Shown: piece after piece, positions 15,960-57,610 of the stretch | How the letters are laid out: every line of letters starts with the position of its first letter | Position numbering within the stretch: the stretch's first letter is position 1 | Assembly: GCA_016783545.1 (NCBI GenBank) | Contig: JADHWJ010000001.1 | Span: 10,369 to 74,368 of the forward strand | Direction of reading: 5' to 3' | Source: Candidatus Aenigmatarchaeota archaeon | GTDB taxonomy: Archaea > Aenigmatarchaeota > Aenigmatarchaeia > QMZP01 | Length of the DNA: 64,000 nt | Program-made: the position numbers and the translations under genes | The notes under the pieces: generated by a model | Databases searched by the model: none | What the model saw: the letters and a program-made list of their open reading frames with translations, nothing else | What the model was told of the DNA's origin: nothing

Positions 15960-18900
15960 TTAGAGCCGCTTTTTATAGATACCTACTGAAAGGATTAGCA
16001 AAAGAATGATTGAAAATTCTTCTAAACCGGAAAACCCTGGTGGGAACCCAATATCTATTCTTACTTCACTTTCATCTTCAAATACCTCACCAGGAGGGAA
16101 CTCAAAAACATCAGATACAGCTATCATCTTCAATTTATAATCTTGGCCAGACTCCCTTGAAGGTATTTCAATGAAAAATCTTTTCCTTTCCCATGGCTGA
16201 AGCACAATATCTTCTATTACCCGTCCTTCTGATTCAACAAACTTTGCCAGGTCATAATCTTCCAAACTTAGGTCAATTGTTTGCGTTTCTCCGAGAAGCT
16301 CCCAAATAGTGACACCGAGTAGATATGTTTCTCCATTTCTGATTACAATATAATTTGAGTCAAATGCAGCCAATGGATGTGTTGTTATTGAATATTCTAT
16401 ATTATTATAATTCTCTGCCCTATCCATTAATTCCACATTTAATTTGACAAGACCTGTTTCATATAATATTTCTATTGGGCAGTTAACACTTCCTCCCCAA
16501 CTATCTCCAGAACCACAATCGTTCCAATCACCACCAGTAGTCCATTTCAAAACACTAACACCAGAGACAGAATCACTTGCATCAATATCCATCTTAACAT
16601 TACCAACATTTCCTGGTATTATTATCCAACCAACCACAGCCTTTATATTATCTATGAATGTTGCTGTATATTCTGGTGGAAGAACGTCTATTGTTGTTCC
16701 CATAAGCCTATTGATGCAATCAGGATCTGCCACATCATCTTCATCACAAACATCTTCAAGTAGTCCATCACTTTCAGAATAAAGACTGAACATAAAGGAG
16801 TAGCTGTCTGTATCACTACCCACCTCATCGTCTGAATCAAAAGTTAAAGATCCTTCAGTGCATTTATCTGGTGTGCATGTAAATTCACCTAAATTAAACC
16901 ACCTAGTCCAAGCAGTCTCTGGACCAGGTCTATTAGGGTTGGGGTTATACCTGTATTTAACAAAAAAGGAGTCCACTGGTGTTCCAGAACCGAATTGTAT
17001 TGGAAATGTAATTTTATTTATCCAATCTGGAAGTCTTGTGAAAAATGATGTCGGAGGGGTAATTACGATTCTTTTTTCCACTGAAACTAGAGGGCCGTCG
17101 TTTCCAACATTATCAAAGGGTTTGCATGTGAATATATATGTTCCTTCATCACCAGCCCAATTGCAAGAGAAATCACCGTTTCCATCCACATCAGCTGTCA
17201 ATATATATGTGAGGTCACCAGACCCATAATTACACATACTATATATATTCAATGGGGTGCCTCCCTCTTCTTTCAGACCAATCTCAAATTCCTTTATCCC
17301 AGATTCATCATCAGTTCCAGTTAGTGGTATAGTAAATGATGACGTAACAGGGGAGTCATCGCCCATTACACATGTTGGCGGGCCCAGGTCAGCGCCCACA
17401 GACTTTTCTTCTTCACCGGTATTTCCAGCCCGGTCAGTTCCTATTAGTTCGAATTTATATAGATAGTTGTTTTGAAGATTATCAAAAACTATTATTTCTC
17501 CAAGGCCAAATAATCCAGGAGTACCAAGTGTTGGTGTGCAGGGGTCTGTTGCTGGAGAACAGCTACCAGATTCTATTGAAATAGGAGTAATACCAAACCC
17601 AGAACCGCCCAGGTCAGAACCAGACCAACTCATGGTGAACGTATCAGCAACCCATGTAATCAGTCCCTCAACATAAAGAGCAGGGGTCACGATTAGAGAG
17701 AAGCTGGGTTCTTGGTTGTCAACCTTTACCTCATTGGTATTGGAAACAGTGACAACACCAAAGTCAGTGAAGATAATGTCAGCCTCAAATTTATAACATT
17801 TACCCGATTCCAGGCCTGTTACTCCAATAATCTCATCAAAAAGTGTTAGTAAGCCACCAACTTGGGTCCTTTCACTATAAGTTCCACACACACCATTAGC
17901 TAATGTCGCTGTCCTTTGGAAAATCTTGAAACCAGTTGAATCTTGATCACTCTTGGTTACAGTAATATCAAGAGTCGTATCCTGGGTAAATCCACCATCA
18001 TAAACTATTGACCCGGTTGCAGTGCCTATTGTTATTGATTTTGTCACCTCCTTTGAATTGTCTGCATTGTCCCATGTGATGGCTTTTATAATATAGCTTG
18101 ACTCTACTATAGTAACACCACAAACAGTCTCTGGAGGCTTTACCTCAACAACACCACTTTCTGGTAAATCACACCCATTATCATTATAATCAACAGTGCA
18201 TTCATCGGATTCATAAATACAGAATCTAGTTTTGTCAATGCCAGAAAGCCCGTCAGACGGTGTTATTTTTACATTAACAAAATCACTTCGAGTACATAGG
18301 TCATCATCACAACCAGTGCCTAAACAACACTCTGCTGCAATAGATGGGTCTGTTATATCTATCTTAACGCTTGTAAGAACAGAATTAGATTCACTTCCAC
18401 TAACATCATTTGCACCAAAATTAAGAAGATCTTCTTGTTCAGAAAGAGTGTTTGTATAATCATATTCATAGGTGCCTTTCATTGTCTTGGTATACCCAAG
18501 AGTTGGATCTGTTAGTTCAACACCATCAACCAGTGGCTCGCAGTCCCCTGAAGTTGCAATGCACATCTTTGTTGCTGCTATGTCATAAGCAGAGCTTACT
18601 GTGACTGTGATGTCCTGATCCTCATTAATCCACACATCATCGCTTCCATAATCCACTTCTAACACAACCCCTGCTGTTGAGACAGGGTCTGATGGGTTTC
18701 CTGCAACATCAATTGCCCTATACACCTTTTTCTTCCCTTCTGGAACAGTCTGGGTGTCATCACTGCAAGATGGATCTCCTTGATCTGGGGCTTCTTCATC
18801 ATTTATTAGGGGACAATTTATTGTTCCTTTCACCCCATCACATGTTCCAGCGCAGTTGCCGGCATCACTCACAGTACAATCGCTTAAAACATCTCCCTGG

Positions 18901-20810
18901 CACCATTTTATTTTCCTCATTCCAGATCCCCCAGCTTCATCGTGCGCTTCTATTTCAAATTCAACACCTGGGAGCACACTCTCTGGTGGTGTTATCACTG
19001 GTGCAATCTTATCTATCTGCACTATGACTGTGGCTGTCTCAAAGTTGTCAAAGCCGTCAGCCGCAGCAGAACAAATAATTACTTTGCTGCTAAGGTCATC
19101 TACTTTACCATCACTTTCATAGTATCCGGGGCTTGGGTATGGTTCTGAATAAGTAACTTTTTCAACATCTGTCCCGCTTAAGAAATCAGCCTTAGAGGGG
19201 CAGCTGACTTCCTTAAAACCAACATCTCTACAACCAACACCATTATCCGGGTCATCACATTTCACTTTAAAGTCTCTGTCAAGGTTGAACCATGGGGTTG
19301 TATCACCATCTTTATAGTTCTCTTTGGTCCCGTCACCATCCATGTCTATCTGGAGCTTGACATTTGGCTTTTCCCTTTCCAGTATTGTAAATTGCCCTTC
19401 AGCTTTGGGAGAACACTCGTGCCAGTAACTTCCCGGAGTATCTTCTGGTATCCTGTTGCAAGATTTCACTTCCCATTCATAATTACCGTATCCAAGCTCG
19501 TTTACATCGTATTTATGTTTGGCTTCATCGAAAACAGCTTCAGGGTCTGCTGGGTTTGGTGTAAAAATTCCTGGAACTATCACTTCCTTTATGTTTTTCA
19601 GGTAAAAATAATACGTGTCAACATAACTGCTATCACTAGCGCGCCACTGGAACTCAACATCCAGATTTCCAGTATCGTCTGTCACTTCCAGCTCGTTTGT
19701 TGGTGCTATTAAAGTTGGTAATTCAGGTACATAGTATTTGGTGATTTTTATCTTGAATGCCGGAGGACCGTAAGAGTCTAGGCCAAGTGAAATACCACCT
19801 GGGGTTTGACTATGCCCATAACTCCATGAAAAATAAAAATTAAAGTCAGTCCCGTCAGACGGGCTTGAAACGTATGGAAGTATTATAAAATATGAATCAA
19901 AATTATACTTCCCAAGGTCATTGGTGAGCCATAAGAAAGTTTTCCATGAAAACCAATCATCAAAATTGACTTGGCTTGGTTCATACTGGAGCCTGTATAT
20001 ATTATTTTCATTATGTGCAAAAGGAGCTGGGTCTGCCCTGAAAACAGTTGGATCTGCTTTCTTTGTGTTTATATTACTACCCCAGTCACTAAAAACTCCA
20101 TCATTGCAATAGTCCCTTCCCTTACACCAGCTTTTTGCTTGGTATTCAAAACCAACTATAGAACCAAGGATTTTATCTGTTGATATTTTAATCCTACATA
20201 ATCTACCTTCATGAATATAATCATGGTTTGCTTTGTTTACCCATTCACATACTTCACAATCATCAGTATCGCATACACAATATTTTTTACATCCATAATA
20301 AACGTCATCTCCACCATCACCTGTAACAGTTCCAGAATTAGCATTGCTTGGAACAAACTCAACCTCAACAGGAGTTGGAAGGTCAACCCATCCAGCATTT
20401 GCAATACCAGAGCTCAGAAGAAAGAAAAATAAAAAAAATATGGGAACATACCCTGCATTGTGATTTATAGCTCCACCCCTTCTGAGTTTTTTAGTAGCTA
20501 AGAAAATAACAAGAATAGCAATCAAAATAATCAATCCCCATAGAATGAATTCATTCCCTTCTACTGGTTCTTCAATTGTTCTGTTGGGTGCTCCAGATAC
20601 CTCTATCCTATTACCATTTTCATCAGCTATGAAATAGCGTTGGTTTTGCTCTATCTCTATACTATCTATTGGGACTTCACTAGAATTAGGAACACATGAA
20701 TCAAGTTCTTCCATATAGACGGTTCCAGTAGGGCAACTCAGCTCTTCAGCCTGAACAAAGACCATGAGCAAAAAAACCGTAAGCAAAAACGAAACTGTTA
20801 TAAATTTCAT
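15960..20810 (-). CDS. giant (1616 aa) Cys/Asp/Gly/Thr-rich cell-surface protein with a C-terminal TM anchor
   Basis: N-terminal signal peptide MKFITVSFLLTVFLLMVFVQA, then a second hydrophobic segment. Long beta-rich repeats follow, with many Cys pairs. The C-terminus FSIILLLILSVGIYKKRL is a TM anchor plus a basic tail. Confidence 0.6.
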   Translation of the reverse strand: MKFITVSFLLTVFLLMVFVQAEELSCPTGTVYMEELDSCVPNSSEVPIDSIEIEQNQRYFIADENGNRIEVSGAPNRTIEEPVEGNEFILWGLIILIAILVIFLATKKLRRGGAINHNAGYVPIFFLFFFLLSSGIANAGWVDLPTPVEVEFVPSNANSGTVTGDGGDDVYYGCKKYCVCDTDDCEVCEWVNKANHDYIHEGRLCRIKISTDKILGSIVGFEYQAKSWCKGRDYCNDGVFSDWGSNINTKKADPTVFRADPAPFAHNENNIYRLQYEPSQVNFDDWFSWKTFLWLTNDLGKYNFDSYFIILPYVSSPSDGTDFNFYFSWSYGHSQTPGGISLGLDSYGPPAFKIKITKYYVPELPTLIAPTNELEVTDDTGNLDVEFQWRASDSSYVDTYYFYLKNIKEVIVPGIFTPNPADPEAVFDEAKHKYDVNELGYGNYEWEVKSCNRIPEDTPGSYWHECSPKAEGQFTILEREKPNVKLQIDMDGDGTKENYKDGDTTPWFNLDRDFKVKCDDPDNGVGCRDVGFKEVSCPSKADFLSGTDVEKVTYSEPYPSPGYYESDGKVDDLSSKVIICSAAADGFDNFETATVIVQIDKIAPVITPPESVLPGVEFEIEAHDEAGGSGMRKIKWCQGDVLSDCTVSDAGNCAGTCDGVKGTINCPLINDEEAPDQGDPSCSDDTQTVPEGKKKVYRAIDVAGNPSDPVSTAGVVLEVDYGSDDVWINEDQDITVTVSSAYDIAATKMCIATSGDCEPLVDGVELTDPTLGYTKTMKGTYEYDYTNTLSEQEDLLNFGANDVSGSESNSVLTSVKIDITDPSIAAECCLGTGCDDDLCTRSDFVNVKITPSDGLSGIDKTRFCIYESDECTVDYNDNGCDLPESGVVEVKPPETVCGVTIVESSYIIKAITWDNADNSKEVTKSITIGTATGSIVYDGGFTQDTTLDITVTKSDQDSTGFKIFQRTATLANGVCGTYSERTQVGGLLTLFDEIIGVTGLESGKCYKFEADIIFTDFGVVTVSNTNEVKVDNQEPSFSLIVTPALYVEGLITWVADTFTMSWSGSDLGGSGFGITPISIESGSCSPATDPCTPTLGTPGLFGLGEIIVFDNLQNNYLYKFELIGTDRAGNTGEEEKSVGADLGPPTCVMGDDSPVTSSFTIPLTGTDDESGIKEFEIGLKEEGGTPLNIYSMCNYGSGDLTYILTADVDGNGDFSCNWAGDEGTYIFTCKPFDNVGNDGPLVSVEKRIVITPPTSFFTRLPDWINKITFPIQFGSGTPVDSFFVKYRYNPNPNRPGPETAWTRWFNLGEFTCTPDKCTEGSLTFDSDDEVGSDTDSYSFMFSLYSESDGLLEDVCDEDDVADPDCINRLMGTTIDVLPPEYTATFIDNIKAVVGWIIIPGNVGNVKMDIDASDSVSGVSVLKWTTGGDWNDCGSGDSWGGSVNCPIEILYETGLVKLNVELMDRAENYNNIEYSITTHPLAAFDSNYIVIRNGETYLLGVTIWELLGETQTIDLSLEDYDLAKFVESEGRVIEDIVLQPWERKRFFIEIPSRESGQDYKLKMIAVSDVFEFPPGEVFEDESEVRIDIGFPPGFSGLEEFSIILLLILSVGIYKKRL

Positions 20811-20888: not shown

Positions 20889-21549
20889 TGACTGGTGGTG
20901 GGTATGGGCTTAGTCCATACTATTAGTTCTCAATAAACAAAAAATAAAATGGGGAGTGAAACCTACCCCATTAATTAACAGACTTAATTACTTGTAGGTT
21001 TCGCTTTCTTATAAATCTTTGAGGTGGAAATATGTCAGAGTTTGTTAGAGGTAGCTCCAGCATTTTCAGGCTGGAGGCTCACATATCTTTTAAGGTCAAA
21101 TACTGTCATGATGTATTTGATATTATAGAATTCAAGGAAAGGTGCACTGAGCTGCTGCTGGAAGCAGCAGCTGGTATTGGTATTGAAGTAACAGAACTTG
21201 GCTACGATAGGAATCATGTACATTTAGATATTCGTTGGATGAGGATATGCCTGAGCGTTGACCAAATTTCAAAAAAGCTCAAGGGAACCACTGGAAGGAA
21301 ACTACTAAAAGAGTTTCCTGGTATCAAGAAAAGGTTCTTCTGGGGTTCAGGTCTATGGTCACCTGTTATATACGGTGACTCACTTGGCAAAGACCCAATT
21401 AATATGCATAACTATGTGGCTAACCAAGGAAAGAAAAGCAGCAAGTATACAACTACCTTGGTGAGGTTCTTTAACCAATAATACCACCGGTCTATAGTGA
21501 GCTCACTGATTTAACAGAGGCGAACGGTGACCGGTGGTTGAACCAATGT
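20889..21549 (+). mobile_element. IS200/IS605-family insertion sequence (IS200-type, tnpA only)
   Basis: The tnpA ORF is flanked by a stem-loop GTATGG-GCTTAGT-CCATAC at 20909-20927 and the perfect palindrome AGTGAGCTCACT at 21497-21508. A direct repeat GAACCAATG lies at both boundaries (20890-20898 and 21541-21549). Local GC is higher than the surroundings. Confidence 0.6.
21032..21481 (+). CDS. tnpA: IS200-like Y1 (HUH) transposase TnpA
   Basis: 149 aa with the HUH motif DRNHVHLDI and a C-terminal FWGSGLWSPVIYGDSLG...YVANQ, typical of IS200 TnpA. Confidence 0.8.
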   Translation: MSEFVRGSSSIFRLEAHISFKVKYCHDVFDIIEFKERCTELLLEAAAGIGIEVTELGYDRNHVHLDIRWMRICLSVDQISKKLKGTTGRKLLKEFPGIKKRFFWGSGLWSPVIYGDSLGKDPINMHNYVANQGKKSSKYTTTLVRFFNQ

Positions 21550-21579
21550 TTATAAGCATACATTGATTAATATATAATT

Positions 21580-23229
21580 ATGCAATATTGGGGAGTTTTA
21601 TTAGTCTTTTCTGCATTTTTTATAGCGCTTTCTATTCCAATATATGCCTTTGAGACCTGTTCTGTCAATGTTAAAAGCAAGTATAATCTTCAGCCGCTTG
21701 AAGGAATGCAAGCTGCTATACACGAAGAAAAACTCTTGGGGGCCAACCCATACTGTACCATAATAAATACTGATATGAGTGGCGATGCATCAATTTCCGT
21801 GCCTTGGTCTGTTTCAGGTGATTGCGATTCTGATAAGTGCACAAAATATGAAGCCGTGGCTTATTATCATGGCGAATATGAGACAAAGTCCTTTTCTTCT
21901 GCAGGGAAACTTTATTTCAAAGTGCCTGCTGGAAATATAGATGTTGAAGTCAGGCTTGTTGATAATGCTGGGAATATTGTAACCAGTGGAATAACATCGG
22001 TTTATTTAGGATATGGTGATGGCACTGTTAAGAACACACTCGATGCACAACCACCAACTCAAGGGATTCTTAATACAGTTGTTTATATACCACAGCCAAT
22101 GGGAACTCCGGTAGGTATACACCCAAACCCACAATTTCATTGCCAGGCAGGCATTGGGGACGGCTGTTTTAGGGATATATACACAATGGCAGAGTTGGAT
22201 GATGGGAGTTTCACAAACTGGGAAAAGCTAAGCAGGGTCAATTGGCAAACAATAAACGCTAAGCTATATAAGGAGATAGAGGTAGCCCAAGGAGGCACTG
22301 TTAGTTGCACTGGTGGAACAGGTGAGATAGAAATAGATCTGAAGAGCATAAGAGGGAACAACATAGCTTCTGAAGGTTATAGTTTTAGAATGGTTTGTAA
22401 GTATAAGAGCGGTTTTTTTGGGCAAACTCAGACAGAAGAGCTCAGCCCGGTTTCAGGTACCAGCAGATTTACTGGATTAAAAACAAATTCGGATTTTGAA
22501 TACAGCTATGAAGTTATGTATGGTGCCACTTCAAAGCAGAGAAACAGCGACCTGTCAACAGTGATTGGTAAGGGCAATGCTGGGAGTTTTCCAACAGGCC
22601 AAGACAAAATGAGTCATGAGTATATAGTGAAACCTGATTGTAAGATGTATTGCATTGAAAAGGATCAGGGTACAATTGAGGGCTTGGTTGCCTATATCAT
22701 TGATCCTTTAAGCGAATTAGGTCTTATTGATAAAATTTTAGGCTCGATCATCAATGCCATTACATTTGGACTGACACCAGGTCCGCAGCCAATTAATATA
22801 ATAACTGATATTCTCGGAAACATTGCACATATTGTTGATGCTGTCACATTTGGAAATTTTGGATCAAAGAATTGCAAGCCATTGGAAGACCTTACAGAGG
22901 CTCAAACCGTTGATTATCTAACTACTATCAGGGATACTGTGCTAAAGGATGATGCTGCGCTGACATATTGTTCAATAGAGATTGATGTTAAAGAGGAAAG
23001 TTATGATAAGGAAAATAATGAAGGGAAATATAAGATAGAAATGAACTCAGAGCCAAGGACAGACGACCTGATGAGGGCGATATTCTATTGCCATTTATTG
23101 GGATGCTTTGATTCTGGTGATAGTGAAAGTGGGAGAAAAAATGATGTAGTGCCCGGTAAATGCACACCACCAACTTGTGAATGTCCCCCAGATTCACCAA
23201 ATGAATGTGCGATAAGATGTTGCACTTAA
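21580..23229 (+). CDS. secreted Cys-rich protein (Sec signal peptide)
   Basis: Signal peptide MQYWGVLLVFSAFFIALSIPIYA. The tail is Cys-rich: GKCTPPTCECPPDSPNECAIRCCT. Confidence 0.5.
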   Translation: MQYWGVLLVFSAFFIALSIPIYAFETCSVNVKSKYNLQPLEGMQAAIHEEKLLGANPYCTIINTDMSGDASISVPWSVSGDCDSDKCTKYEAVAYYHGEYETKSFSSAGKLYFKVPAGNIDVEVRLVDNAGNIVTSGITSVYLGYGDGTVKNTLDAQPPTQGILNTVVYIPQPMGTPVGIHPNPQFHCQAGIGDGCFRDIYTMAELDDGSFTNWEKLSRVNWQTINAKLYKEIEVAQGGTVSCTGGTGEIEIDLKSIRGNNIASEGYSFRMVCKYKSGFFGQTQTEELSPVSGTSRFTGLKTNSDFEYSYEVMYGATSKQRNSDLSTVIGKGNAGSFPTGQDKMSHEYIVKPDCKMYCIEKDQGTIEGLVAYIIDPLSELGLIDKILGSIINAITFGLTPGPQPINIITDILGNIAHIVDAVTFGNFGSKNCKPLEDLTEAQTVDYLTTIRDTVLKDDAALTYCSIEIDVKEESYDKENNEGKYKIEMNSEPRTDDLMRAIFYCHLLGCFDSGDSESGRKNDVVPGKCTPPTCECPPDSPNECAIRCCT

Positions 23230-23231
23230 CT

Positions 23232-26200
23232 ATGAACAAAAAAATTAAAGCCCAAGTGGAAATATTGACAATAGTTTTAGTAGCTGCAGGAATAATTGTA
23301 GCTGTAGTGTATGGTGGGACAATGGAAGAGCCGAAAGGAAAATTTGTAGAATCAGCTATAATATCCCTCCAAAATACAATGTGTACAGACCCTGCTAATG
23401 CATATTCATTCTCTGGTGGTGTTAGAACCACATGTACATGTTATCTTGCTTTTCAGCCATACGCAACTTCGTTTTCCACTGCCTATCCTGTTGATGTTGA
23501 ATATCTGGGCCTTGTATGGGAGGGCGCTGAAGGATTCTGTTATGGGCTTCAAATAATACCAGAAGGTGCTGAGCCTGGAATAATGCCACCCGGTGGCGGA
23601 GTAACTCCCCCATCAGGTGAATGCCCTGGTTATGATTGTTCCCCTCATGATGCAAGCAGAGTTAGTAAAAAATTCACTGTTAGCTATAACATCCATCCTA
23701 ATAAAGACAAGAATAATATATTTGGTAATTTGATGGCTAAAGTGAGAATATTGGATGAAAATAGCCCTCCTAATGAAATAGAAATCCTCGATGATGCTGA
23801 TGTTAGTATTGACATACCCAGTAGCTGCAATGCTGTTGGTTCATTAGACTGCAAAGTGGAAGTTTATGTTGATAATCCAGATCCATCGCATATGAAAGAT
23901 GGATATGCTTGGATGTTTTATTTGGGCCAGGCAGCTAAAATTGCTAAAACAGATTGTGATAGTAGCGGAGCATGTGATGGAATAGACTGGGCCGATGGCG
24001 ACGATGTTGATATAGTGGGATTTGAATTTCCAACTTCTACGTTGCCGGTGTTCCCCTTTGGCATGCAGCCAGGAACATTTGAGAGAGCTTTTGATGGTGT
24101 TGAAATCAGAGATTTATGCCTTGAATGGCCTGTTACTGACGGTGAAAGGCTGGAACCAATAACCATTGGTCCCTATTCTGATCCAGTATGTAATTGTAAA
24201 AATCCAGGAGATGGTCCTTATGAGGGATTCCAGAAAGAAGAGAGTGGTAGTGCTCAATGCGTTGAAATTGTTGACACCGGATATGTTAGATTTGAAGACT
24301 ATAACGATGTGGAAACATACGTGTTTTCAAGGGGGGAGAACATGTTCTGCACTGCCCGTATAGACACTTTTAATGATATTGAACCTGTTAATCCAAAAAT
24401 AGAAATTTTAATGGTTAAGGAAGGAGATATTGACAACCCTTTGACAAAAAGCGGCGAAGATGGTAATCCAACCTGTAATTTTAATGAGGACTGTGTAATA
24501 GGATATGATACCCTTGGGATAACAGATTTCAGTTCAGGTCCTGTTAACATTGAGTGTTATGTGAAATACAGCTTTGATGCATGGAATTCCAGGGAATATA
24601 AGAGCATGCCTGAAATGATGTTCCTTAATGGTCCAACCGCTGTTCATCATGTCCCACTGCCCAGTGCGCAGGTTTTCCCATGCCCTGATAAAACCTTAGC
24701 ACAACCTTATCCTAATCCAGAAATACCCGAACTTGGAGAGGAATATTGTGTGTGTGTGGAGAGTGTAACAGTTCCTGATGGAACGTTAGATTTAGATGGT
24801 ACATACGGGCCTGATATGAAGTGTCATATATTACCAATACTCCCAAGTACTATTTTTTATGACGAAGATGGGAATAAAAGGGGAAAAGTCCCGAAAGGCG
24901 ATGTAAGTGTTATAGTGGAGGGAGAAAAATACAAAGACAGTGATGATGTGATTGCCAGGGGATATTTTTATGGCAGGTACGTTTCAGATGATACTGTTAC
25001 ACCACCTGTTGACTGTGAAACAACAATCAATATTAAAAGAATACGTACCGACGCTTCCGGAGCTGAGCAAACAGAGGATTTTGAAGGTACTGATAACTGC
25101 TGCGATGCTAATGAAATATGCGAATTAACTTTCCTTGACGCTGAAACAGAACCATTTGACAAATTTGAGGCCTACATGGCATACAAATTCAAGGTTTGGG
25201 ACGGTGTTAATGAGATTCCAATAACAGGGTACATAGAAGGCGACACTTTAGCCATGGGAATAGGTGACACGTCAGAGGCAGAAGTTGCTCCCTGTCCGGA
25301 TGGATTTGAAACATCTATATATACAGATGCTGTTGGTATTGGTTATAACATATGCATTTGTGGTGATCAGAACGAAGGCTTTACAAGACCAAAGATAGGT
25401 GACGATGATGGTGTTTGCGTCAAGTCAGATATTGAAAATATGAGGTATGGAGATCTTTACACAGAAGAAATCATAGGATTTATGCCTGCTGGTGGTAACT
25501 ATTACACATCTGAAATTCAACCAAAATGTATAGCAGATATTGAAATTGAGAACGGGGAGATAGACAGTGATACTATTGTAGAAGTGAAAGGATTTTTGGA
25601 AGCGGTTGAATATGGGGATGATACTGTAGTGCAGGATTATACTCAAATGTGTGATATTTCACAAGCTGAATGCACTGTTAGTCTTTCTCCACAATCTAAA
25701 TTTCTGTATACAAAATGCAAGTTTAATGAGGATATTTTAACTTGGAGTGGAAAAGCAGACATAACAATTAGAAAACCTATTCAATTTCAACAAATCCAAC
25801 CAGAAGAAAGTATAATGATTATACCGGTTGGTTATATTAAGGGAACTATAAAAGGATGTAGAGATGTTAAAGGAGTTAGAACATGCGCAGAATTGGAAGA
25901 TGTTGAAATAAAATTAATTAGCAGCCAGGTAAATCCACATAAGGTGTGTAATGAATTCCCATGTAATGAAATAGCTGGCGTAACCGATGCAAACGGAAAC
26001 TTTGATATCGGGCCGATATATTCCCAATTTGATGATACTGATAAATTCCTTTTCAGGTTGATGGTTAACTCAGGTGGCATGGAATATTTCTGGGACGGTA
26101 ACCAAATAATGAATGATACTATCTGGGAGACGTTTAATATCCCTTTGAATAGTTATAAAGATTTTGGTGTTTTGGAAATTGAAATGCCTCCGTGCAAAAA

Positions 26201-26558
26201 ACTGCAGGAGATCGGAGAAGGTAAGGATAAAATGGAAGATTTAATTGATGAATTCAATAGTTGCTTGAATAACAATGCATGTAAAATGTTCTGCCAGCCT
26301 AGTTTAAACATAAAAGACGAATATAAAATGAATCTTGGGTCATTAACAACTGTTGTTGATTCAGTCCTGGACGCTCCAATAGTATTATATCAGAGACTTT
26401 TGCTGGGAGTGGTTGACAAGGTAAGATTGATAACTTTCAATAAAGTACCGGTTGTTTCAGCACTCAAAAGTTATATTAATTTATTCACACCCTATCTTAT
26501 TTGGCATGGGGATTTTGAGCTTATTGAAAGAAATAAGAGTTGGTGGCAGATATGGTAG
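23232..26558 (+). CDS. large (about 1100 aa) surface protein with a pilin-like class III signal peptide
   Basis: MNKKIKA|QVEILTIVLVAAGIIVAVV has a basic n-region, then K-A, then Q and E, then a 20-aa hydrophobic stretch, matching archaeal prepilin-peptidase substrates. The body is Cys/Asp/Gly-rich. Confidence 0.5.
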   Translation: MNKKIKAQVEILTIVLVAAGIIVAVVYGGTMEEPKGKFVESAIISLQNTMCTDPANAYSFSGGVRTTCTCYLAFQPYATSFSTAYPVDVEYLGLVWEGAEGFCYGLQIIPEGAEPGIMPPGGGVTPPSGECPGYDCSPHDASRVSKKFTVSYNIHPNKDKNNIFGNLMAKVRILDENSPPNEIEILDDADVSIDIPSSCNAVGSLDCKVEVYVDNPDPSHMKDGYAWMFYLGQAAKIAKTDCDSSGACDGIDWADGDDVDIVGFEFPTSTLPVFPFGMQPGTFERAFDGVEIRDLCLEWPVTDGERLEPITIGPYSDPVCNCKNPGDGPYEGFQKEESGSAQCVEIVDTGYVRFEDYNDVETYVFSRGENMFCTARIDTFNDIEPVNPKIEILMVKEGDIDNPLTKSGEDGNPTCNFNEDCVIGYDTLGITDFSSGPVNIECYVKYSFDAWNSREYKSMPEMMFLNGPTAVHHVPLPSAQVFPCPDKTLAQPYPNPEIPELGEEYCVCVESVTVPDGTLDLDGTYGPDMKCHILPILPSTIFYDEDGNKRGKVPKGDVSVIVEGEKYKDSDDVIARGYFYGRYVSDDTVTPPVDCETTINIKRIRTDASGAEQTEDFEGTDNCCDANEICELTFLDAETEPFDKFEAYMAYKFKVWDGVNEIPITGYIEGDTLAMGIGDTSEAEVAPCPDGFETSIYTDAVGIGYNICICGDQNEGFTRPKIGDDDGVCVKSDIENMRYGDLYTEEIIGFMPAGGNYYTSEIQPKCIADIEIENGEIDSDTIVEVKGFLEAVEYGDDTVVQDYTQMCDISQAECTVSLSPQSKFLYTKCKFNEDILTWSGKADITIRKPIQFQQIQPEESIMIIPVGYIKGTIKGCRDVKGVRTCAELEDVEIKLISSQVNPHKVCNEFPCNEIAGVTDANGNFDIGPIYSQFDDTDKFLFRLMVNSGGMEYFWDGNQIMNDTIWETFNIPLNSYKDFGVLEIEMPPCKKLQEIGEGKDKMEDLIDEFNSCLNNNACKMFCQPSLNIKDEYKMNLGSLTTVVDSVLDAPIVLYQRLLLGVVDKVRLITFNKVPVVSALKSYINLFTPYLIWHGDFELIERNKSWWQIW

Positions 26559-35675: not shown

Positions 35676-35789
35676 CGGACCTGGGAGGGTCTTCAGCTTC
35701 GCTGAAGGCATATGCTTTCAGCATAGCATTCGAACCTCCGACCTTCACCTTAGGAGGGTGCCGCTCTAATCCAACTGAGCTACAGGCCC
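35676..35789 (-). tRNA. tRNA-Arg(CCU) with a roughly 39-nt non-canonical intron in the T-loop (about 35689-35727)
   Basis: The reverse complement reads GGGCCUG UA GCUC AGUUGGAUUA GAGC G GCACC CUCCUAA GGUGA AGGUC GGAGG UUCGAAU [GCUAUGCUGAAAGCAUAUGCCUUCAGCGAAGCUGAAGAC] CCUCC CAGGUCC G. All four stems are present. The insert contains two GAA-loop hairpins. Confidence 0.7.
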
Positions 35790-35825
35790 ATTAAATCTTT
35801 TATTTCTTTATATTAATCTTTCTAT

Positions 35826-43302: not shown

Positions 43303-46300
43303 TTAGGCAACTTTATGGTTTAGAGCAGGCGGAGTTTTAGCAGCAGGAAGTACACCACCAGGTCCATGAGCGTGAGGTGGTATGCCAGTTCCAGTCGGCT
43401 TGTCTGCTCCAGCACCGCCCGCACCTGTTCCAGGAGAGATTGCCCATATCATGGCAACTATACAAAGCAGGGAGAGTATGCTGCTCAATCCCATCATGTC
43501 GTTTCCAAAATCCCCATGACTGCTTATACCACCTCTCAACCCGTCTACATTATCTGCATTACAAAGCGACTCCTTTGATTTTTTCAGCTGATCCAGCTCT
43601 TGTTTGGCCTCTTCATATTTTGTCAGGGCGTCTGAAGCAAGGCAGAGAAGGATTGCTGTTGCAAACCTGCAGTACCAAGGAGCGGTCTCGCCCTTATCAA
43701 GAGCTGCTTGGCACACCGCATAGATAATAACAACAGCTGAGATATATTGAGTGAATTCTTCTTTTCTCTTGTCAATTTCGTCTTCTAAATCATCAATATC
43801 AGCTTTAGTTTTTTCACAGTTTATATAATCCAGACTCTTGTTGCCTTTGATTATCAAAGTCCCAGTGGCAGAAAGGTCTCGTGTTGAAACAGTTTCTCCT
43901 TCTTTGTATTCTACTGTAACAAACAAACTGAGAGATCTGTTAACCTTCCTGAGTGCCCTTAACCCATTTTCTATAACAGGTGGTAGTATGGGACATGATA
44001 TATTAATGCTCTGGTTTGTTGAATTAAGTACACTGCAATATGTTTCAGAAATATCACTATCATTGAATTGATATGAACTGCTCTTGAGCTTGGTAAAGCC
44101 TGCAGGAGGATTTTGTATCAGTGCGCTCACCTCAAATGATTGAGTCGATACACATTGCTTTTTCAAATTCACTGAACATTCAATAGGGTTTGGTATATAC
44201 ATATTCAATAGCATTGAATCACTGCTTATACATTCTCCATTCTCTTTAGCACCATTATAACAGAATTGTTCACCCGGACAACCGCAATCCAGACAGCAGG
44301 TGCCTGCTGACTCTCCGACATCATTTTCACATTTACCATCACCGCAATGCGGAATGGGTTTGATTGTAAACAACGGCAGGTCTGCTCTTAGTGTGCCTCC
44401 AACTGTTTTGTCACCGTTATTAAATCTTATCCAAAAGCTAAGGTTTCCTGGTGGAAACCTGACTATACCATTAGGTCTATCAAATAATTGTGAGGTGTTA
44501 TAATCTACTGTGGGTAGCGTCAAATTGCACGCAAAACGCACATCCCCGATTTCTTCACATTCAACAGTACAGGGAACATCATCATCAAACTCGCATGTGG
44601 AACTAGTGAAAATGAACCCTTCTGGTGGCTTTTCAACCATAACAGTCATTTTTGATTTATGATGTATTGTTGTATCCTCAAAATCTTTTTTATCATACTC
44701 TTCAATAATCAATCTTATTTGGGATTTTAACTCACAGCTATCTCCTGGTGTAAATCCCCCCAAATCTTGAGTACTGCAATAATAACCATCATCACACCCA
44801 CAATCATAGCAGCAATTGTTGCTGGTCTCCCACGGTTCATCACAAATTCTATTCCCGCATTGCATCAAACCTATTGAAATGCCTGGTGCAGAAGCTTCCA
44901 GTCGTTTCAAGAGAGCTCCATGTGTACCATCCATGTAGCTTATATTAACAGCTATATCTGGGTTCAATGTATATACTTTTGAAGAATTATATTCAAGCAC
45001 CTGAAATCTTAATGAACATGTCGCATTGTATATGTTTGTATCAGAACTAGGAAGCCCAGAGCATGTTAGTGTGCATGTGGATATGCAGGGAGTTCTGTCA
45101 GCAGTGCATTCAGTTGAACATGTTGTAGAAACAACGCTCATTGTTTTTGGTTTGTTTTGTATATTGATTAATAGATTTACAATTTCTGTGGAAGTTCCTT
45201 TATAGAATGAAAGTGGATTGGCTTCAATAATTACAAGATCACTGTCTATTGGATCTAACCTGCATTCAGCTTGTGTATGATCAGAGACATTATAATCACA
45301 ATAACCTGTTACACAATCACAATCATAGCAGGAATTCTGCTCGTTTTCTCCTAAATCTCTTTGACATTCTCCATCGGCTGGAAACCAGCTAACAACTGTT
45401 ATATCATCAAAATTCCCTTCTAATGTTTTATAAACAGTATCAGCACCATCTGGAAAATTTGTATCCATAACAAGACTGTTAGGTCCTATTGTAAATGTAC
45501 CAGAATCACAATCTGGATCAGCAAATAATGTTATATTACATTTGTATACTTCCCTAACCTTTGCACATGTTGTTGGTAGTGTGGTTTGGTTCAGCCTATA
45601 CATTACACTGTCAAGGTTTATACCACTTGGTTCATTGTCAATAATAACAGAGAGCTCTATCTCATTATCAACTTTGCAGTTAGTTATGCCTGTATTTCCA
45701 GATATGCTAAGCGTTATGCTATCAAGATCTTTACACCCCTTTCCTATATCACAATAATCACTTTCAACACCACAGCCGCAATCAAGACAGCAGTTTACAG
45801 AATTTTCCCCAATACTACCTTCGCATTTCTCACCAGGTGAATCATACCCGGGTCCAAATCCACAGTGATAGTCTGTTACATTATGCAAAGTAATGGGGTT
45901 GTATACACCATTATCATTTTCAGAGAAAACAACCCAGAAATCAGCATCAATTGTCTCTACAGCACTTGCATAACTTTCAGATGTTCTGAAACTGGCAGAG
46001 TCCATTTCAGCTTCATCTCCTTTGATTATATACAATTTGTTACTGTCTGCAAAAACAGCCCTTTCTGTGATATCAGAACGGAAAGGAACTATTTCATTAA
46101 TCCTAACAAAGTCCCTTATGAAACTAAACCTTCCGATTGAATTTGTGTATAAGTTGACTCTATCCAGCTCTCTATTGACTTTGAATAGAACACTTCCTGT
46201 TTTCATTACTTCTTCCCAAAACCCAATCCAGCCAACAGCGCCGCCAACCCTTGTTTTAACAAGCATGAGGATGTTTGCCACATCATCACTTGATATATCA

Positions 46301-46614
46301 GAAAATGGATAAGTTTTTAAGAAATCACCTGAAGAAGAATCATAATCTCCAGCATCTATGCATTCTTTTGGATTTTTATCCGTGCATTTATACACCTGGA
46401 CCTTTTCGATATTGTCTCCCCCCAAAGAGACTGAAACATCATTTCCGTTTAAAGAAATTGATTTAGTTGCTATATCCCCTGGATTTAATTGAACTGTATC
46501 AGAACTCACTCCATAAATCATATTGATTTCAGTTGCGAAAGCAAATGGCATTGAAAAAATTAAATATGTCATGGATATTGCAAACACTTCGAGTATCATT
46601 ATTTTATAATTCAT
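43303..46614 (-). CDS. large secreted Cys-rich protein with four copies of a CG-x-G-x-C...GE-x...CC-x-DCGC module and a multi-TM C-terminal region
   Basis: Signal peptide MNYKIMILEVFAISMTYLIFSMPFAFA. The four repeats are GEKCEGSIGENSVNCCLDCGC, GECQRDLGENEQNSCYDCDC, CGNRICDEPWETSNNCCYDCGC and CGDGKCENDVGESAGTCCLDCGC. The C-terminus has a coiled-coil stretch and hydrophobic helices. Confidence 0.55.
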   Translation of the reverse strand: MNYKIMILEVFAISMTYLIFSMPFAFATEINMIYGVSSDTVQLNPGDIATKSISLNGNDVSVSLGGDNIEKVQVYKCTDKNPKECIDAGDYDSSSGDFLKTYPFSDISSDDVANILMLVKTRVGGAVGWIGFWEEVMKTGSVLFKVNRELDRVNLYTNSIGRFSFIRDFVRINEIVPFRSDITERAVFADSNKLYIIKGDEAEMDSASFRTSESYASAVETIDADFWVVFSENDNGVYNPITLHNVTDYHCGFGPGYDSPGEKCEGSIGENSVNCCLDCGCGVESDYCDIGKGCKDLDSITLSISGNTGITNCKVDNEIELSVIIDNEPSGINLDSVMYRLNQTTLPTTCAKVREVYKCNITLFADPDCDSGTFTIGPNSLVMDTNFPDGADTVYKTLEGNFDDITVVSWFPADGECQRDLGENEQNSCYDCDCVTGYCDYNVSDHTQAECRLDPIDSDLVIIEANPLSFYKGTSTEIVNLLINIQNKPKTMSVVSTTCSTECTADRTPCISTCTLTCSGLPSSDTNIYNATCSLRFQVLEYNSSKVYTLNPDIAVNISYMDGTHGALLKRLEASAPGISIGLMQCGNRICDEPWETSNNCCYDCGCDDGYYCSTQDLGGFTPGDSCELKSQIRLIIEEYDKKDFEDTTIHHKSKMTVMVEKPPEGFIFTSSTCEFDDDVPCTVECEEIGDVRFACNLTLPTVDYNTSQLFDRPNGIVRFPPGNLSFWIRFNNGDKTVGGTLRADLPLFTIKPIPHCGDGKCENDVGESAGTCCLDCGCPGEQFCYNGAKENGECISSDSMLLNMYIPNPIECSVNLKKQCVSTQSFEVSALIQNPPAGFTKLKSSSYQFNDSDISETYCSVLNSTNQSINISCPILPPVIENGLRALRKVNRSLSLFVTVEYKEGETVSTRDLSATGTLIIKGNKSLDYINCEKTKADIDDLEDEIDKRKEEFTQYISAVVIIYAVCQAALDKGETAPWYCRFATAILLCLASDALTKYEEAKQELDQLKKSKESLCNADNVDGLRGGISSHGDFGNDMMGLSSILSLLCIVAMIWAISPGTGAGGAGADKPTGTGIPPHAHGPGGVLPAAKTPPALNHKVA

Positions 46615-54623: not shown

Positions 54624-55028
54624 ATGGGTCATAGAAGCAGCATACCTCTATATTGGAGATTACAGAAATCAAAGTATAATTTAGTTGGAACAAAATGCAA
54701 AACATGTGGAAAGCTCTATTTTCCACCAAGACAGCTCTGTTCAGAATGTAGAAGAAAGGGTGAGATAGAAGACTTTAGTTTCTCTGGTAAAGGAGAGATA
54801 ATTTCATTTACAGTTATAAGAGCAGCCCCAGAAGGATTTGAAAAATACACACCTTATGCAATTGCATTAATAAAACTGGAAGAAGGTGAAGTTATCTCAG
54901 GTCAGATAGTTGGTGATGTTACTAAAGTCGAAGAAGGAAAAAAAGTGAAGTCTGTTTTCAGAAGAATGCATGAAGACGGAAAAGATGGCGTCATCTTTTA
55001 TGGTGTCAAATTTCAATTAGTTGGTTAG
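54624..55028 (+). CDS. DUF35 OB-fold/zinc-ribbon scaffold protein of the thiolase-HMGCS complex
   Basis: CKTCGKLYFPPRQLCSECRR is a rubredoxin-like zinc ribbon, followed by an OB-fold. Its start abuts the thiolase stop. Confidence 0.8.
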   Translation: MGHRSSIPLYWRLQKSKYNLVGTKCKTCGKLYFPPRQLCSECRRKGEIEDFSFSGKGEIISFTVIRAAPEGFEKYTPYAIALIKLEEGEVISGQIVGDVTKVEEGKKVKSVFRRMHEDGKDGVIFYGVKFQLVG

Positions 55029-57610
55029 AGTATGTCCATATCTGTCTTATTCAGCCTCTTTTCAAATAGTTTCATTAATCTGTATGTCATGGAAGCTGGG
55101 AATTTTTTATAGAATCGCCTGAAAAGAAGCCCTTTTCTAATTCCTTTACCAATAACACTTTCCCATTCTTTTTCATATTGGCTTAAGAAGGATTCTGAAA
55201 AATTATTTTCTCTAAGAGCTTTTTGAATTGTTTCAGCTGCTTTTTCAGCTGCTGTAAACCCATAAACAACACCACCACCACTATTATGAAGTATTAATGG
55301 ACCAAGGCCTCCTATAAACATATTACTTTTTGGAACTTCTATATCAAAAACATCTCTATTTGTTTTTATTTTTCTAATCTCTTTTATAGGGAGAAGTATC
55401 ATTTTATTTTTAATTAATTTTTTTATAAACTCTTTTTCTCTACCATTTCCAATTTTATTCAAACCTTTCAATAATTTTTCATAACTGAGAATATTACAGC
55501 TTTTGTTTTTACATCTATTTGAAATGTATTTTCCAACCTCAGTTTTTATTAGTTCATTTATCATATCATTTGATAAAATGTTTTTTGGAAAACCAAATGT
55601 GGGTCTGGATTTAATATTATTTAAGTATTTTTTAATTTCTATTTTATTTGGGAAAATATCTGAAAGTTTTTCTAAATCTTTTTTGGAGGAAAAACTAATT
55701 TTATATGATTTACTGGTTTTTATTTTTTTATTGTAGAATGAATGTACTCTGCTTTCTGATTCCTCAACTGATGGAAACAAACCCAGTTGCAATGAAAGTA
55801 TAATAATATCACTGGCAAGTTTACGGCTAGCTGTTTTAGAAGAAATTTCTGCAGACCAATTTCTTCTTTTTTCTGGCATTCTAACTCTGCAGAATCCATC
55901 ACCTTTCATATAAGCCTTTAAAAACTCAATCTTCACTTCATCTGAAATGTTGAAAATTATATATGGAATTTGTTTATTATATGCATTCTTACCCGTTTCC
56001 AGTATGTCAGTAAATATTTTGGCAAGTAATTTTCCACCAAAAGATATAGGAAATTCTGTTTCTTCTTTTGTATACGGATTTTTTCTTGGTTTCCAGAAAC
56101 TTATATTAATTCCAAACGTTTTACCAATACAATCTATTAGATCATCCATAATACCGTTTTTAATATCATCTTTTCCTAAGGACATGTGAATGTGTTTACC
56201 TTTTGATGAGTCTCCTTCAGCAATATAATAACCGAGAATACGGCAAAATTCAGGTGTTATTTTAATTATATTCGGAATTTCTACTTTCTTTTTTGGAGGT
56301 TCATAGACAATTCTGACATCTTTAGGTATAATTTTTTCATTCAAAAATAATTTTAGAGGTATAGAGTCGCGGTCCCAATATGTTGTTCTATAATTTATTG
56401 GAACTTCAGAACGCTTAGAAAAAAGAAGTTTTTTCCCTCCTCTAACACGAATTTTTTTCACAAATTCGGGATATTTTTTTATTATCAAATTAATTAAATT
56501 CAGTTCTGTTATATTATTTGCATTATTAGGAACACTTGAAGTAAAAAGTAAGTGATCTTTTTTAGGTTCCAATTCAGAAACTTTTTTAGGCATCAAATTA
56601 AAATCATTTACACAAATTACACTGTGTGAACCTGTTGTCTTAACCCTATAACCTTTATTTGTGATTATTTCAAACATGTTTTCATCCAGTTTATGTTCTA
56701 AACACGATTTTATTTTCATAAAATTTAGAAGAGAAGCATTCTTAGATGGTGAAAATGCATAAATATTTTTTATTTTATTGTTTCTAAAATTGTTAACTAC
56801 TTCTTCTATCTTTACATTTTTTATAAGTCCGTTTTCTTTTATAATTATACTTTCTTCTCCATCAATGCTCCACGGTTTGACCTGTCCTGCTGCATCTCCA
56901 ACTAAGAGAACTCTTTCAGCATAGCTTTTACAGCTACCGATTGGTATCAAAGCGCCCATTCTTTCATAGTCTTTAAGATCAAAGAATCTTTCCAAATCTA
57001 GAAATTTTGCATTCTTTCCAAGTATTCCATATTCTGTTGTTTCCCCTCTTGGAATCTTCCATAGAAAACCATCAGTTATTTTTTTATCATACCAGAGCTC
57101 AACAAAATTATTATTATTTTTTTCTGAAACAGTTGCTATTAGACCATTTACAAGTTCTGTTCTATATCCAAGGAAATCCCTGACAGAAGAGCTTGCACCA
57201 TCACAACCAACCAAGAGTTTTGTATTTAACTTCCCTTTAGTAGTTTCAACAATCAGATGATCTTTAGCCTTTTCAAAACCAATGAACTTTGTATTGAGTT
57301 TAATTTTGGATTCAAGACTCTTTGCAAGACTCTTGTCAAATTTTGACCTATCTAAAACATAGGCCGCTGTCTTTTCTTTGACTAGATTTATAGTGCCTGA
57401 ATTGAAATGTATTTTTGCACCCCTCACTTCATGTTCTAGAAAGTCCTTATTTACTGGAACGAATTTTTCCAAGTTAGTTGATATTAGACCAGAACATGGT
57501 TTCTTACCAATATGGTCTTTGCTTTCAAGAATAACAACATCCAAATCGCTTAGCTTATGTGCTAAGAAAAGTCCAACAGGTCCTGCACCAACAATAACAA
57601 CATCATGCAT
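55025..57610 (-). CDS. geranylgeranyl reductase family flavoprotein interrupted by a 529-aa intein
   Basis: The N-terminus is VVIVGAGPVGLFLAHKL (FAD GxGxxG). The N-extein ends ...VGDAAGQVKPW and the C-extein resumes SGGGVVYGF, so the reconstructed GDAAGQVKPWSGGGV matches the conserved GGR motif GDAAG..P..GGGI. Confidence 0.75.
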   Translation of the reverse strand: MHDVVIVGAGPVGLFLAHKLSDLDVVILESKDHIGKKPCSGLISTNLEKFVPVNKDFLEHEVRGAKIHFNSGTINLVKEKTAAYVLDRSKFDKSLAKSLESKIKLNTKFIGFEKAKDHLIVETTKGKLNTKLLVGCDGASSSVRDFLGYRTELVNGLIATVSEKNNNNFVELWYDKKITDGFLWKIPRGETTEYGILGKNAKFLDLERFFDLKDYERMGALIPIGSCKSYAERVLLVGDAAGQVKPWSIDGEESIIIKENGLIKNVKIEEVVNNFRNNKIKNIYAFSPSKNASLLNFMKIKSCLEHKLDENMFEIITNKGYRVKTTGSHSVICVNDFNLMPKKVSELEPKKDHLLFTSSVPNNANNITELNLINLIIKKYPEFVKKIRVRGGKKLLFSKRSEVPINYRTTYWDRDSIPLKLFLNEKIIPKDVRIVYEPPKKKVEIPNIIKITPEFCRILGYYIAEGDSSKGKHIHMSLGKDDIKNGIMDDLIDCIGKTFGINISFWKPRKNPYTKEETEFPISFGGKLLAKIFTDILETGKNAYNKQIPYIIFNISDEVKIEFLKAYMKGDGFCRVRMPEKRRNWSAEISSKTASRKLASDIIILSLQLGLFPSVEESESRVHSFYNKKIKTSKSYKISFSSKKDLEKLSDIFPNKIEIKKYLNNIKSRPTFGFPKNILSNDMINELIKTEVGKYISNRCKNKSCNILSYEKLLKGLNKIGNGREKEFIKKLIKNKMILLPIKEIRKIKTNRDVFDIEVPKSNMFIGGLGPLILHNSGGGVVYGFTAAEKAAETIQKALRENNFSESFLSQYEKEWESVIGKGIRKGLLFRRFYKKFPASMTYRLMKLFEKRLNKTDMDIL
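55283..56869 (-). mobile_element. intein with LAGLIDADG homing-endonuclease domain inside the GGR gene
   Basis: It begins SIDGEESIIIKENG...KTTGSHSV (splicing blocks A and B). It contains LGYYIAEGD and LKAYMKGDG (LAGLIDADG motifs) and ends ...GLGPLILHN, followed by Ser+1. Confidence 0.7.

Follow-up and report, generated by a model that had tools for sequence, protein, structure and literature searches.

Sequence analysis of a 64-kb stretch of archaeal DNA (the window) leads us to conclude that positions 35676–35789 of its minus strand very probably constitute a functional tRNA-Arg(CCU) gene of Aenigmarchaeota, in which a 39-nt protein-spliced intron separates tRNA position 59 from position 60 (Table 1). 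The original prediction had placed a tRNA-Arg(CCU) with a 39-nt intron in the T-loop at these coordinates without stating the strand. The coordinates were correct, and the assignment was confirmed both by ARAGORN on the spliced sequence and by a covariance model (R1, 64.8 bits, see below). Read from 35789 to 35676, the gene is GGGCCUG-UA-GCUC-AGUUGGAUUA-GAGC-G-GCACC-CUCCUAA-GGUGA-AGGUC-GGAGG-UUCGAA-[39 nt]-C-CCUCC-CAGGUCC-G, and CCA is not encoded.

Table 1. Coordinates of the tRNA-Arg(CCU) gene, its intron, and other features of the window.
Feature	Positions	Strand	Remarks
Whole tRNA-Arg(CCU) gene	35676..35789	-	G1 = 35789, discriminator G73 = 35676; matched end to end by R1
5' exon, tRNA positions 1-59	35729..35789	-	acceptor 5' strand, D-arm, anticodon arm, variable loop, T-stem 5' strand, T-loop U54-A59
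Anticodon CCU	35752..35754	-	reads AGG; ARAGORN on the spliced sequence
39-nt BHB intron at 59/60, UGCUAUGCUGAAAGCAUAUGCCUUCAGCGAAGCUGAAGA	35690..35728	-	sole register giving a 3-4-3 bulge-helix-bulge; R1 insert after A59
3' exon, positions 60-73	35676..35689	-	C60, T-stem CCUCC, acceptor CAGGUCC, G73
Central helix H, exon strand U54 U55 C56 G57	35731..35734	-	pairs with intron UGAA
Central helix H, intron strand UGAA	35692..35695	-	pairs with U54-G57
5' bulge A58 A59 / U	35728..35730	-	5' cut predicted between 35729 and 35728 from BHB geometry
3' bulge G A / C60	35689..35691	-	3' cut predicted between 35690 and 35689 from BHB geometry
Outer helix h', 3' strand = T-stem CCUCC	35684..35688	-	pairs with GGAGG 35735..35739 (5 bp)
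Intron body	35696..35727	-	helix h (GCU 35725..35727 / AGC 35696..35698) at the base of a 7+2 bp hairpin (35700..35723)
TATA-like box, TTAATATA	35809..35816	-	20-27 nt upstream of the mature 5' end; sequence reading
Large ORF	15960..20810	-	no Pfam domain
IS200-like Y1 transposase gene and following ORF	21032..23229		149 aa, then 549 aa
Large ORF	23205..26558	+	no Pfam domain
Large ORF	43303..46614	-	no Pfam domain
Geranylgeranyl-reductase-like gene	55025..57610	-	861 aa, contains an intein
GC-rich segment	57620..58330		about 650-700 nt
Large ORF	61058..63997	-	no Pfam domain

The unspliced gene escapes standard tools. ARAGORN called no tRNA in the whole window, and Rfam gave no match to the unspliced locus at the gathering threshold. 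With relaxed thresholds, RF00005 aligned to the gene over model positions 8–63 with 25.5 bits, against a cut-off of 29, and the 3' strand of the T-stem was misaligned into the insert. Deletion of the 39 nt affords a 75-nt sequence that ARAGORN identifies as tRNA-Arg(cct) with four regular arms and a single G27·A43 mismatch. R1 was built solely from 12 intronless tRNA-Arg(CCU) genes of unrelated archaeal genomes. A search of the 64 kb with this model returned a single match that coincides exactly with the gene (model positions 1–75, 64.8 bits, E about 1e-12) and places an insertion of 40 nt, the 39-nt intron plus N60, after A59. The gene thus passes the model once the insert is allowed, as the original prediction had demanded of it. 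A pattern consisting of anticodon loop, T-arm, insert, and 3' end also matched once in the window, compared with 0.00 matches expected from 100 shuffles. Since the identical 114-nt sequence is present in two independent assemblies (Logan SRR12042682 and ENA ERZ24794676), we can eliminate the possibility of an assembly artefact.

The identity elements of Arg-type tRNAs are A20, C35, and a purine at position 73. The gene encodes A20 in the D-loop, G73, and a 7-nt anticodon loop CU-CCU-AA with U33 and A37, as expected for tRNA-Arg(CCU). Among the Arg codons of the window, AGG ranks second in use; its frequency in 17 confident ORFs is 11.2 per 1000 codons. No further hidden tRNAs were found in the window by T-loop and D-arm motif scans, by GC-island scans, or by the covariance model. 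The TATA-like box TTAATATA upstream of the gene is a possible archaeal promoter, although in a genome with 35% GC such a box is weak evidence.

The host is an archaeon of the DPANN lineage Aenigmarchaeota, a group with frequent disruption of tRNA genes. The window (about 35% GC) encodes a family B DNA polymerase, Cdc6/Orc1, Hjc, Spt5, the ribosomal proteins L1/L10/L11/L12, and both the alpha and beta subunits of PheRS, all of archaeal type, and its MinD and SecF match, with 100% identity, NCBI proteins that bear the label Candidatus Aenigmarchaeota archaeon. The earlier suggestion that non-canonical intron positions mark certain archaeal lineages agrees with this assignment.

Several other features of the window were recorded. 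A segment of 48–50% GC, compared with a background of about 35%, separates the geranylgeranyl-reductase-like gene from the gene for SecF. Neither an ORF longer than 100 aa nor a Pfam or Rfam match was found in it, it is free of repeats, and it occurs only once in the window; its minus strand is predicted to fold with -226 kcal/mol (z = -3.25). Since the same two genes are merely 62 nt apart in the related locus L087 (SecF 74% identical), the segment represents a lineage-specific insertion, which may encode an orphan structured RNA or may be what is left of a mobile element. The neighboring reductase-like protein is an FAD-binding protein interrupted by an intein, which includes a homing-endonuclease domain of the LAGLIDADG type; its orthologue in L087 is intein-free and consists of 335 aa. 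The gene for an IS200-like Y1 transposase is followed by an ORF without Pfam match, and the two may form an element of the IS200/IS605 type in which the partner gene has diverged. Finally, four large ORFs (979–1616 aa), located in regions with a slightly raised GC content (about 38–41%), may code for large surface proteins typical of DPANN.

With the identity of the gene established, the question is where the intron begins and ends. Archaeal splicing endonucleases act on a 4-bp helix with a 3-nt bulge on either side, and they cut each bulge between its second and third nucleotides. Only the 59/60 register provides this geometry: both bulges contain 3 nt, the central helix (H) contains 4 bp, and both outer helices (h and h') are present. 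The motif as modeled is a strict 3-4-3 hBHBh' in which none of the features that define a relaxed bulge-helix-bulge (BHB) is found, that is, neither a missing bulge or one that deviates from 3 nt nor a missing outer helix. The original prediction had instead proposed an intron at 60/61 (UUCGAAU / 39 nt / CCUCC) that folds into two GAA-capped hairpins and is excised from a relaxed BHB by an endonuclease of broad specificity. Deletion of 35689–35727 does give a valid cloverleaf with U60, the base present in most orthologues, and both hairpins can be drawn. At the corresponding cuts, however, there is no central helix, because UCGA and GAAG do not match at the second pair. The two-hairpin fold (-40.1 kcal/mol for the 114-nt precursor) is 3.4 kcal/mol less stable than the strict BHB fold (-43.5 kcal/mol) and sequesters the UGAA strand that the BHB needs. 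In addition, the 59/60 register gives a perfect BHB in 13 other genomes. An intron at 60/61 is, in our judgment, very unlikely, and the junction is better placed at 59/60, where the BHB geometry leaves C60 rather than U60 in the mature tRNA.

The minimum free energy (MFE) fold of the precursor (-46.7 kcal/mol) is not the BHB fold. In the nearest-neighbor model of the isolated RNA, the latter is less stable than the MFE fold by 3.2 kcal/mol. The sole difference between the two is that the 4-bp helix H is replaced by two shifted pairs (U55-A and C56-G). The model prefers this 2-bp alternative, giving the four H pairs an ensemble probability of only about 0.006; the pairs of helix h have ensemble probabilities of 0.985–0.999. 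We favor the BHB over the shifted pairing because the H pairing is kept in the 59/60 introns of other genomes, and these comparative sequence data settle the question for the BHB. For several orthologues, the BHB fold is itself the unconstrained MFE of the T-arm plus intron.

Two further ideas about the intron were considered and rejected. The sequence AUGCUGA is one mismatch away from a box C, and the intron contains two CUGA motifs, as might be expected of a box C/D guide RNA. This reading was ruled out since the GCUGAA repeats are helix strands, no orthologous intron carries the motifs, and 39 nt are too short for such an RNA. The intron is not a mobile repeat either, as searches of the window and of 13 archaeal loci revealed no second copy.

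The comparative data derive in part from a pattern scan over one genome per species, in which the 3' end of the insert was left unconstrained. The majority of the 82 matches fell on bacterial or archaeal tRNA-Arg(CCU) genes that have no intron and are followed by a CCYCC by chance; these were removed by an acceptor-stem check. This left 10 loci in which the T-loop of tRNA-Arg(CCU) carries a genuine insert. Their sources are Aenigmatarchaeota (L007, L058, L062), Nanoarchaeota (L044, L077), a genome labelled Methanosarcinales (L073), and Thermoplasmatota/Methanomassiliicoccales (L032, L043, L045, L075). A pattern scan of metagenomes produced a single JGI contig (L085). A perfect 4-bp helix H with 3-nt bulges at 59/60 is present in 8 of the 10 scan loci, the intron sequences of which cannot be aligned. 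Across the tRNA-Arg(CCU) introns at 59/60 collected from other genomes, the count is 13 of 15. The intron strand of H varies exclusively in ways that preserve pairing (UGAA, CGAA, CGAG, CGGA), and in L088 an A57-U pair takes the place of the G57·U or G57-C pair found elsewhere. A weak helix h or an imperfect helix H was seen in the L007 clade and in L062.

Some of these loci have additional peculiarities. The tRNA-Arg(CCU) genes of L044, L077, and L073 are multi-intron genes: besides the intron at 59/60, each contains one or more inserts in the D-arm or 5' region. The intron of L073 closely resembles that of L077. In the Thermoplasmatota locus L075 (2259–2647), an intact intronless tRNA-Arg(CCU) (96.4 bits) is preceded, about 75 nt upstream, by a second copy (54.2 bits), the T-loop of which bears a 46-nt insert without a proper BHB; a further partial match scores 25.5 bits. 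This arrangement looks like a tandem duplication with decay.

The exons are conserved as those of a tRNA. In the spliced exons of eight genes, the cloverleaf is kept with 96% of cells paired. Compensatory changes occur at eight pairs, compared with zero to one in slid controls, and none of 500 shuffles reached this number. One such change is the T-stem pair A51-U63, which spans the intron and is G-C in orthologues. The G27-A43 mismatch that the original prediction had flagged as a potential weakness is real. Since it is conserved in the orthologues L007, L058, L085, L094, and L095, it is not a sign of decay.

These observations also bear on the possibility that the gene is a pseudogene, broken by a 39-nt insertion and left unprocessed, with AGG decoded by another tRNA such as Arg-UCU. 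Failure of standard predictors to call the gene is in line with such a scenario, and the insert-bearing copy beside the intact gene in L075 demonstrates that decayed copies do exist. Yet the exons in the window are undamaged, their score across the insert is 64.8 bits, the insert ends exactly as a strict BHB requires, and the covariance model detected no other tRNA-Arg(CCU) within the window. Moreover, syntenic orthologues with about 50% protein identity keep both exons, with compensatory changes in the stems, as well as the BHB. A pseudogene is therefore extremely unlikely.

A self-splicing group I or II intron, or a T-loop expansion that is retained in the mature RNA, has even less in its favor. 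Nothing specific speaks for either idea, which we raise solely because bacterial tRNA introns belong to group I. An insert of 39 nt is far too short for a ribozyme, the core of which comprises hundreds of nucleotides, and no Rfam intron matches it. Retention of 39 nt in the T-loop would abolish its interaction with the D-loop. The orthologous T-loop introns vary freely in length (22–61 nt) and sequence, and the BHB is all that they keep. We consider the probability of either idea negligible and return to a BHB intron that is removed by proteins.

Knowledge of archaeal tRNA splicing in general suggests how such a gene would be processed once it is expressed. In the precursor, the invariant T-loop residues U54–G57 would pair with UGAA near the 3' end of the intron to form the 4-bp central helix between the two 3-nt bulges (A58 A59/U and G A/C60). 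The T-stem would serve as the outer helix on one side, and the GCU/AGC helix of the intron, which leads into a hairpin, would do so on the other. The endonuclease EndA would then make one cut per bulge, and an RtcB-type ligase would join the exons to complete the T-loop UUCGAAC. The predicted exon junction reads ...GGUUCGAA-CCCUCCCAGG... (UUCGAA-CCCUCC, with C60). Because the gene does not encode CCA, this sequence would have to be added post-transcriptionally. Pfam scans located no genes for EndA, RtcB, or a CCA-adding enzyme in the 64-kb window, and tblastn with EndA from M. jannaschii, a query that was checked against PDB 1a79, found no match to EndA there.

The original prediction had called for a permissive splicing endonuclease. 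Previous work has shown that the alpha4 and alpha2 forms of EndA need a strict 3-4-3 hBHBh' and that relaxed motifs alone need the (alpha-beta)2 or epsilon2 forms (PMC3239211). Since the strict hBHBh' is a substrate for alpha4 and alpha2 enzymes, a permissive EndA is not implied by the motif. The 59/60 introns of Thermoplasmatota would fit with this view. The EndAs described from DPANN are alpha4 enzymes with an L3 insert, (alpha-beta)2, or epsilon2 (PMC5829648).

The surroundings of the gene allowed us to follow it through related genomes. A gene for a MinD-type ATPase starts 40 nt downstream of the tRNA on the same strand. The order PheRS-alpha, PheRS-beta, MinD, tRNA, (LTD protein), CBS is common to three Aenigmatarchaeota MAGs and one JGI contig, the proteins of which are 48–60% identical. 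Eight further relatives (L088–L095) were picked by similarity of their MinD homologues and size of the contig alone, blind to introns, and the region upstream of MinD was read. They share the gene order, and the tRNA lies upstream of MinD in all eight. Seven of the eight genes were readable and were spliced by hand. ARAGORN re-called the six with a full exon set as tRNA-Arg(cct); L092 was left out of this re-call since its 5' part is displaced. In L090 (GCA_012974965.1), a run of N at about 888–907 falls within the 5' half of the tRNA and masks its intron state.

The intron content of these genes differs widely. L088, the closest relative (MinD 76%), contains 26 nt at 59/60, and L095 contains 59 nt at the same position. 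L092, the gene with the displaced 5' part, combines 19 nt at 37/38 with 61 nt at 59/60. L093 carries 49 nt at 37/38, L089 has introns at about 29/30 and at 37/38, L091 has one in the D-loop and one at about 30/31, and L094 has no intron. The gene is consequently interrupted in six of seven readable relatives, at no fewer than five different positions, and all three new 59/60 introns (L088, L095, L092) form a perfect helix H with 3-nt bulges. The tRNA-Arg(CCU) gene is thus orthologous across these relatives and under selection; its intron content turns over, and 59/60 recurs. These data provide evidence that intron turnover in the lineage has a hot spot at this one syntenic gene.

One may ask whether the MinD-adjacent tRNA-Arg(CCU) gene is a long-lived hot spot of gain, loss, and relocation of BHB introns in Aenigmarchaeota and other DPANN. 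We regard this broad generalization as unlikely. Recurrence of the 59/60 position, also in Nanoarchaeota and Thermoplasmatota, possibly reflects the fact that the invariant T-loop sequence UUCG/A supplies a ready-made half of the central BHB helix. Should the persistence of introns be due to selection and not to neutral turnover, this locus would be a natural test case for the retention of archaeal tRNA introns. Candidate selective causes are the shielding of the 3' half of the gene from integrating elements or the ordering of T-loop modification. In either case, one syntenic orthologous gene with differing intron configurations offers material for studies on intron turnover and on the co-evolution of EndA with its substrates.

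The findings have a practical side for genome annotation. ARAGORN and the Rfam gathering score also missed the gene in all four Aenigmatarchaeota orthologues tested. Annotation of this kind would report tRNA-Arg(CCU) as missing, so that genome completeness or decoding capacity would be misjudged. The archaeal mode of tRNAscan-SE 2.0 does look for such introns with BHB covariance models (PMC8450103). The incomplete tRNA sets of new DPANN genomes have been taken to point to undetected disrupted tRNA genes (PMC5829648), and the gene described here is a case in point.

Position 59/60 is a published non-canonical site of tRNA introns (PMC4090602). With the intron in the window, Aenigmarchaeota join the lineages with BHB introns in the T-loop, and the known mechanism is unchanged. 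The closest precedent is ARMAN-2 (Candidatus Micrarchaeum, DPANN), in which pre-tRNA-Cys(GCA) and pre-tRNA-Pro(GGG) have introns at 59/60; that of tRNA-Cys is cleaved in vitro by the epsilon2 EndA of the host (Fujishima et al. 2011, PMC3239211). The two cases share the T-loop position, the superphylum, and a protein-spliced BHB, which in the ARMAN-2 tRNA-Pro is also a strict hBHBh'. They differ in the tRNA (Arg-CCU), in the phylum (Aenigmarchaeota), in the length of the intron (39 nt compared with 13 nt in the ARMAN-2 tRNA-Cys), and in the motif, which is relaxed (hBH) in this tRNA-Cys and strict in the window.

Non-canonical and multiple tRNA introns are also documented for Thermoproteales and other Crenarchaeota (PMC4090602, PMC4033280). 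As in the relatives of the present host, their BHB introns occupy many positions, including 59/60, and intron content differs among close relatives. Crenarchaeota, however, use an (alpha-beta)2 EndA with a Crenarchaea-specific loop and have many relaxed motifs, whereas the present host belongs to DPANN. The canonical intron at 37/38, which the orthologous gene of the relative L093 carries, shares the 3-4-3 hBHBh' with the intron in the window and presumably depends on the same EndA and RtcB. In contrast to this canonical arrangement, helix H of the 59/60 intron is formed by T-loop bases 54–57 instead of the anticodon loop, the T-stem instead of the anticodon stem provides the outer helix, and the intron is missed by standard predictors that are limited to introns in the anticodon loop.
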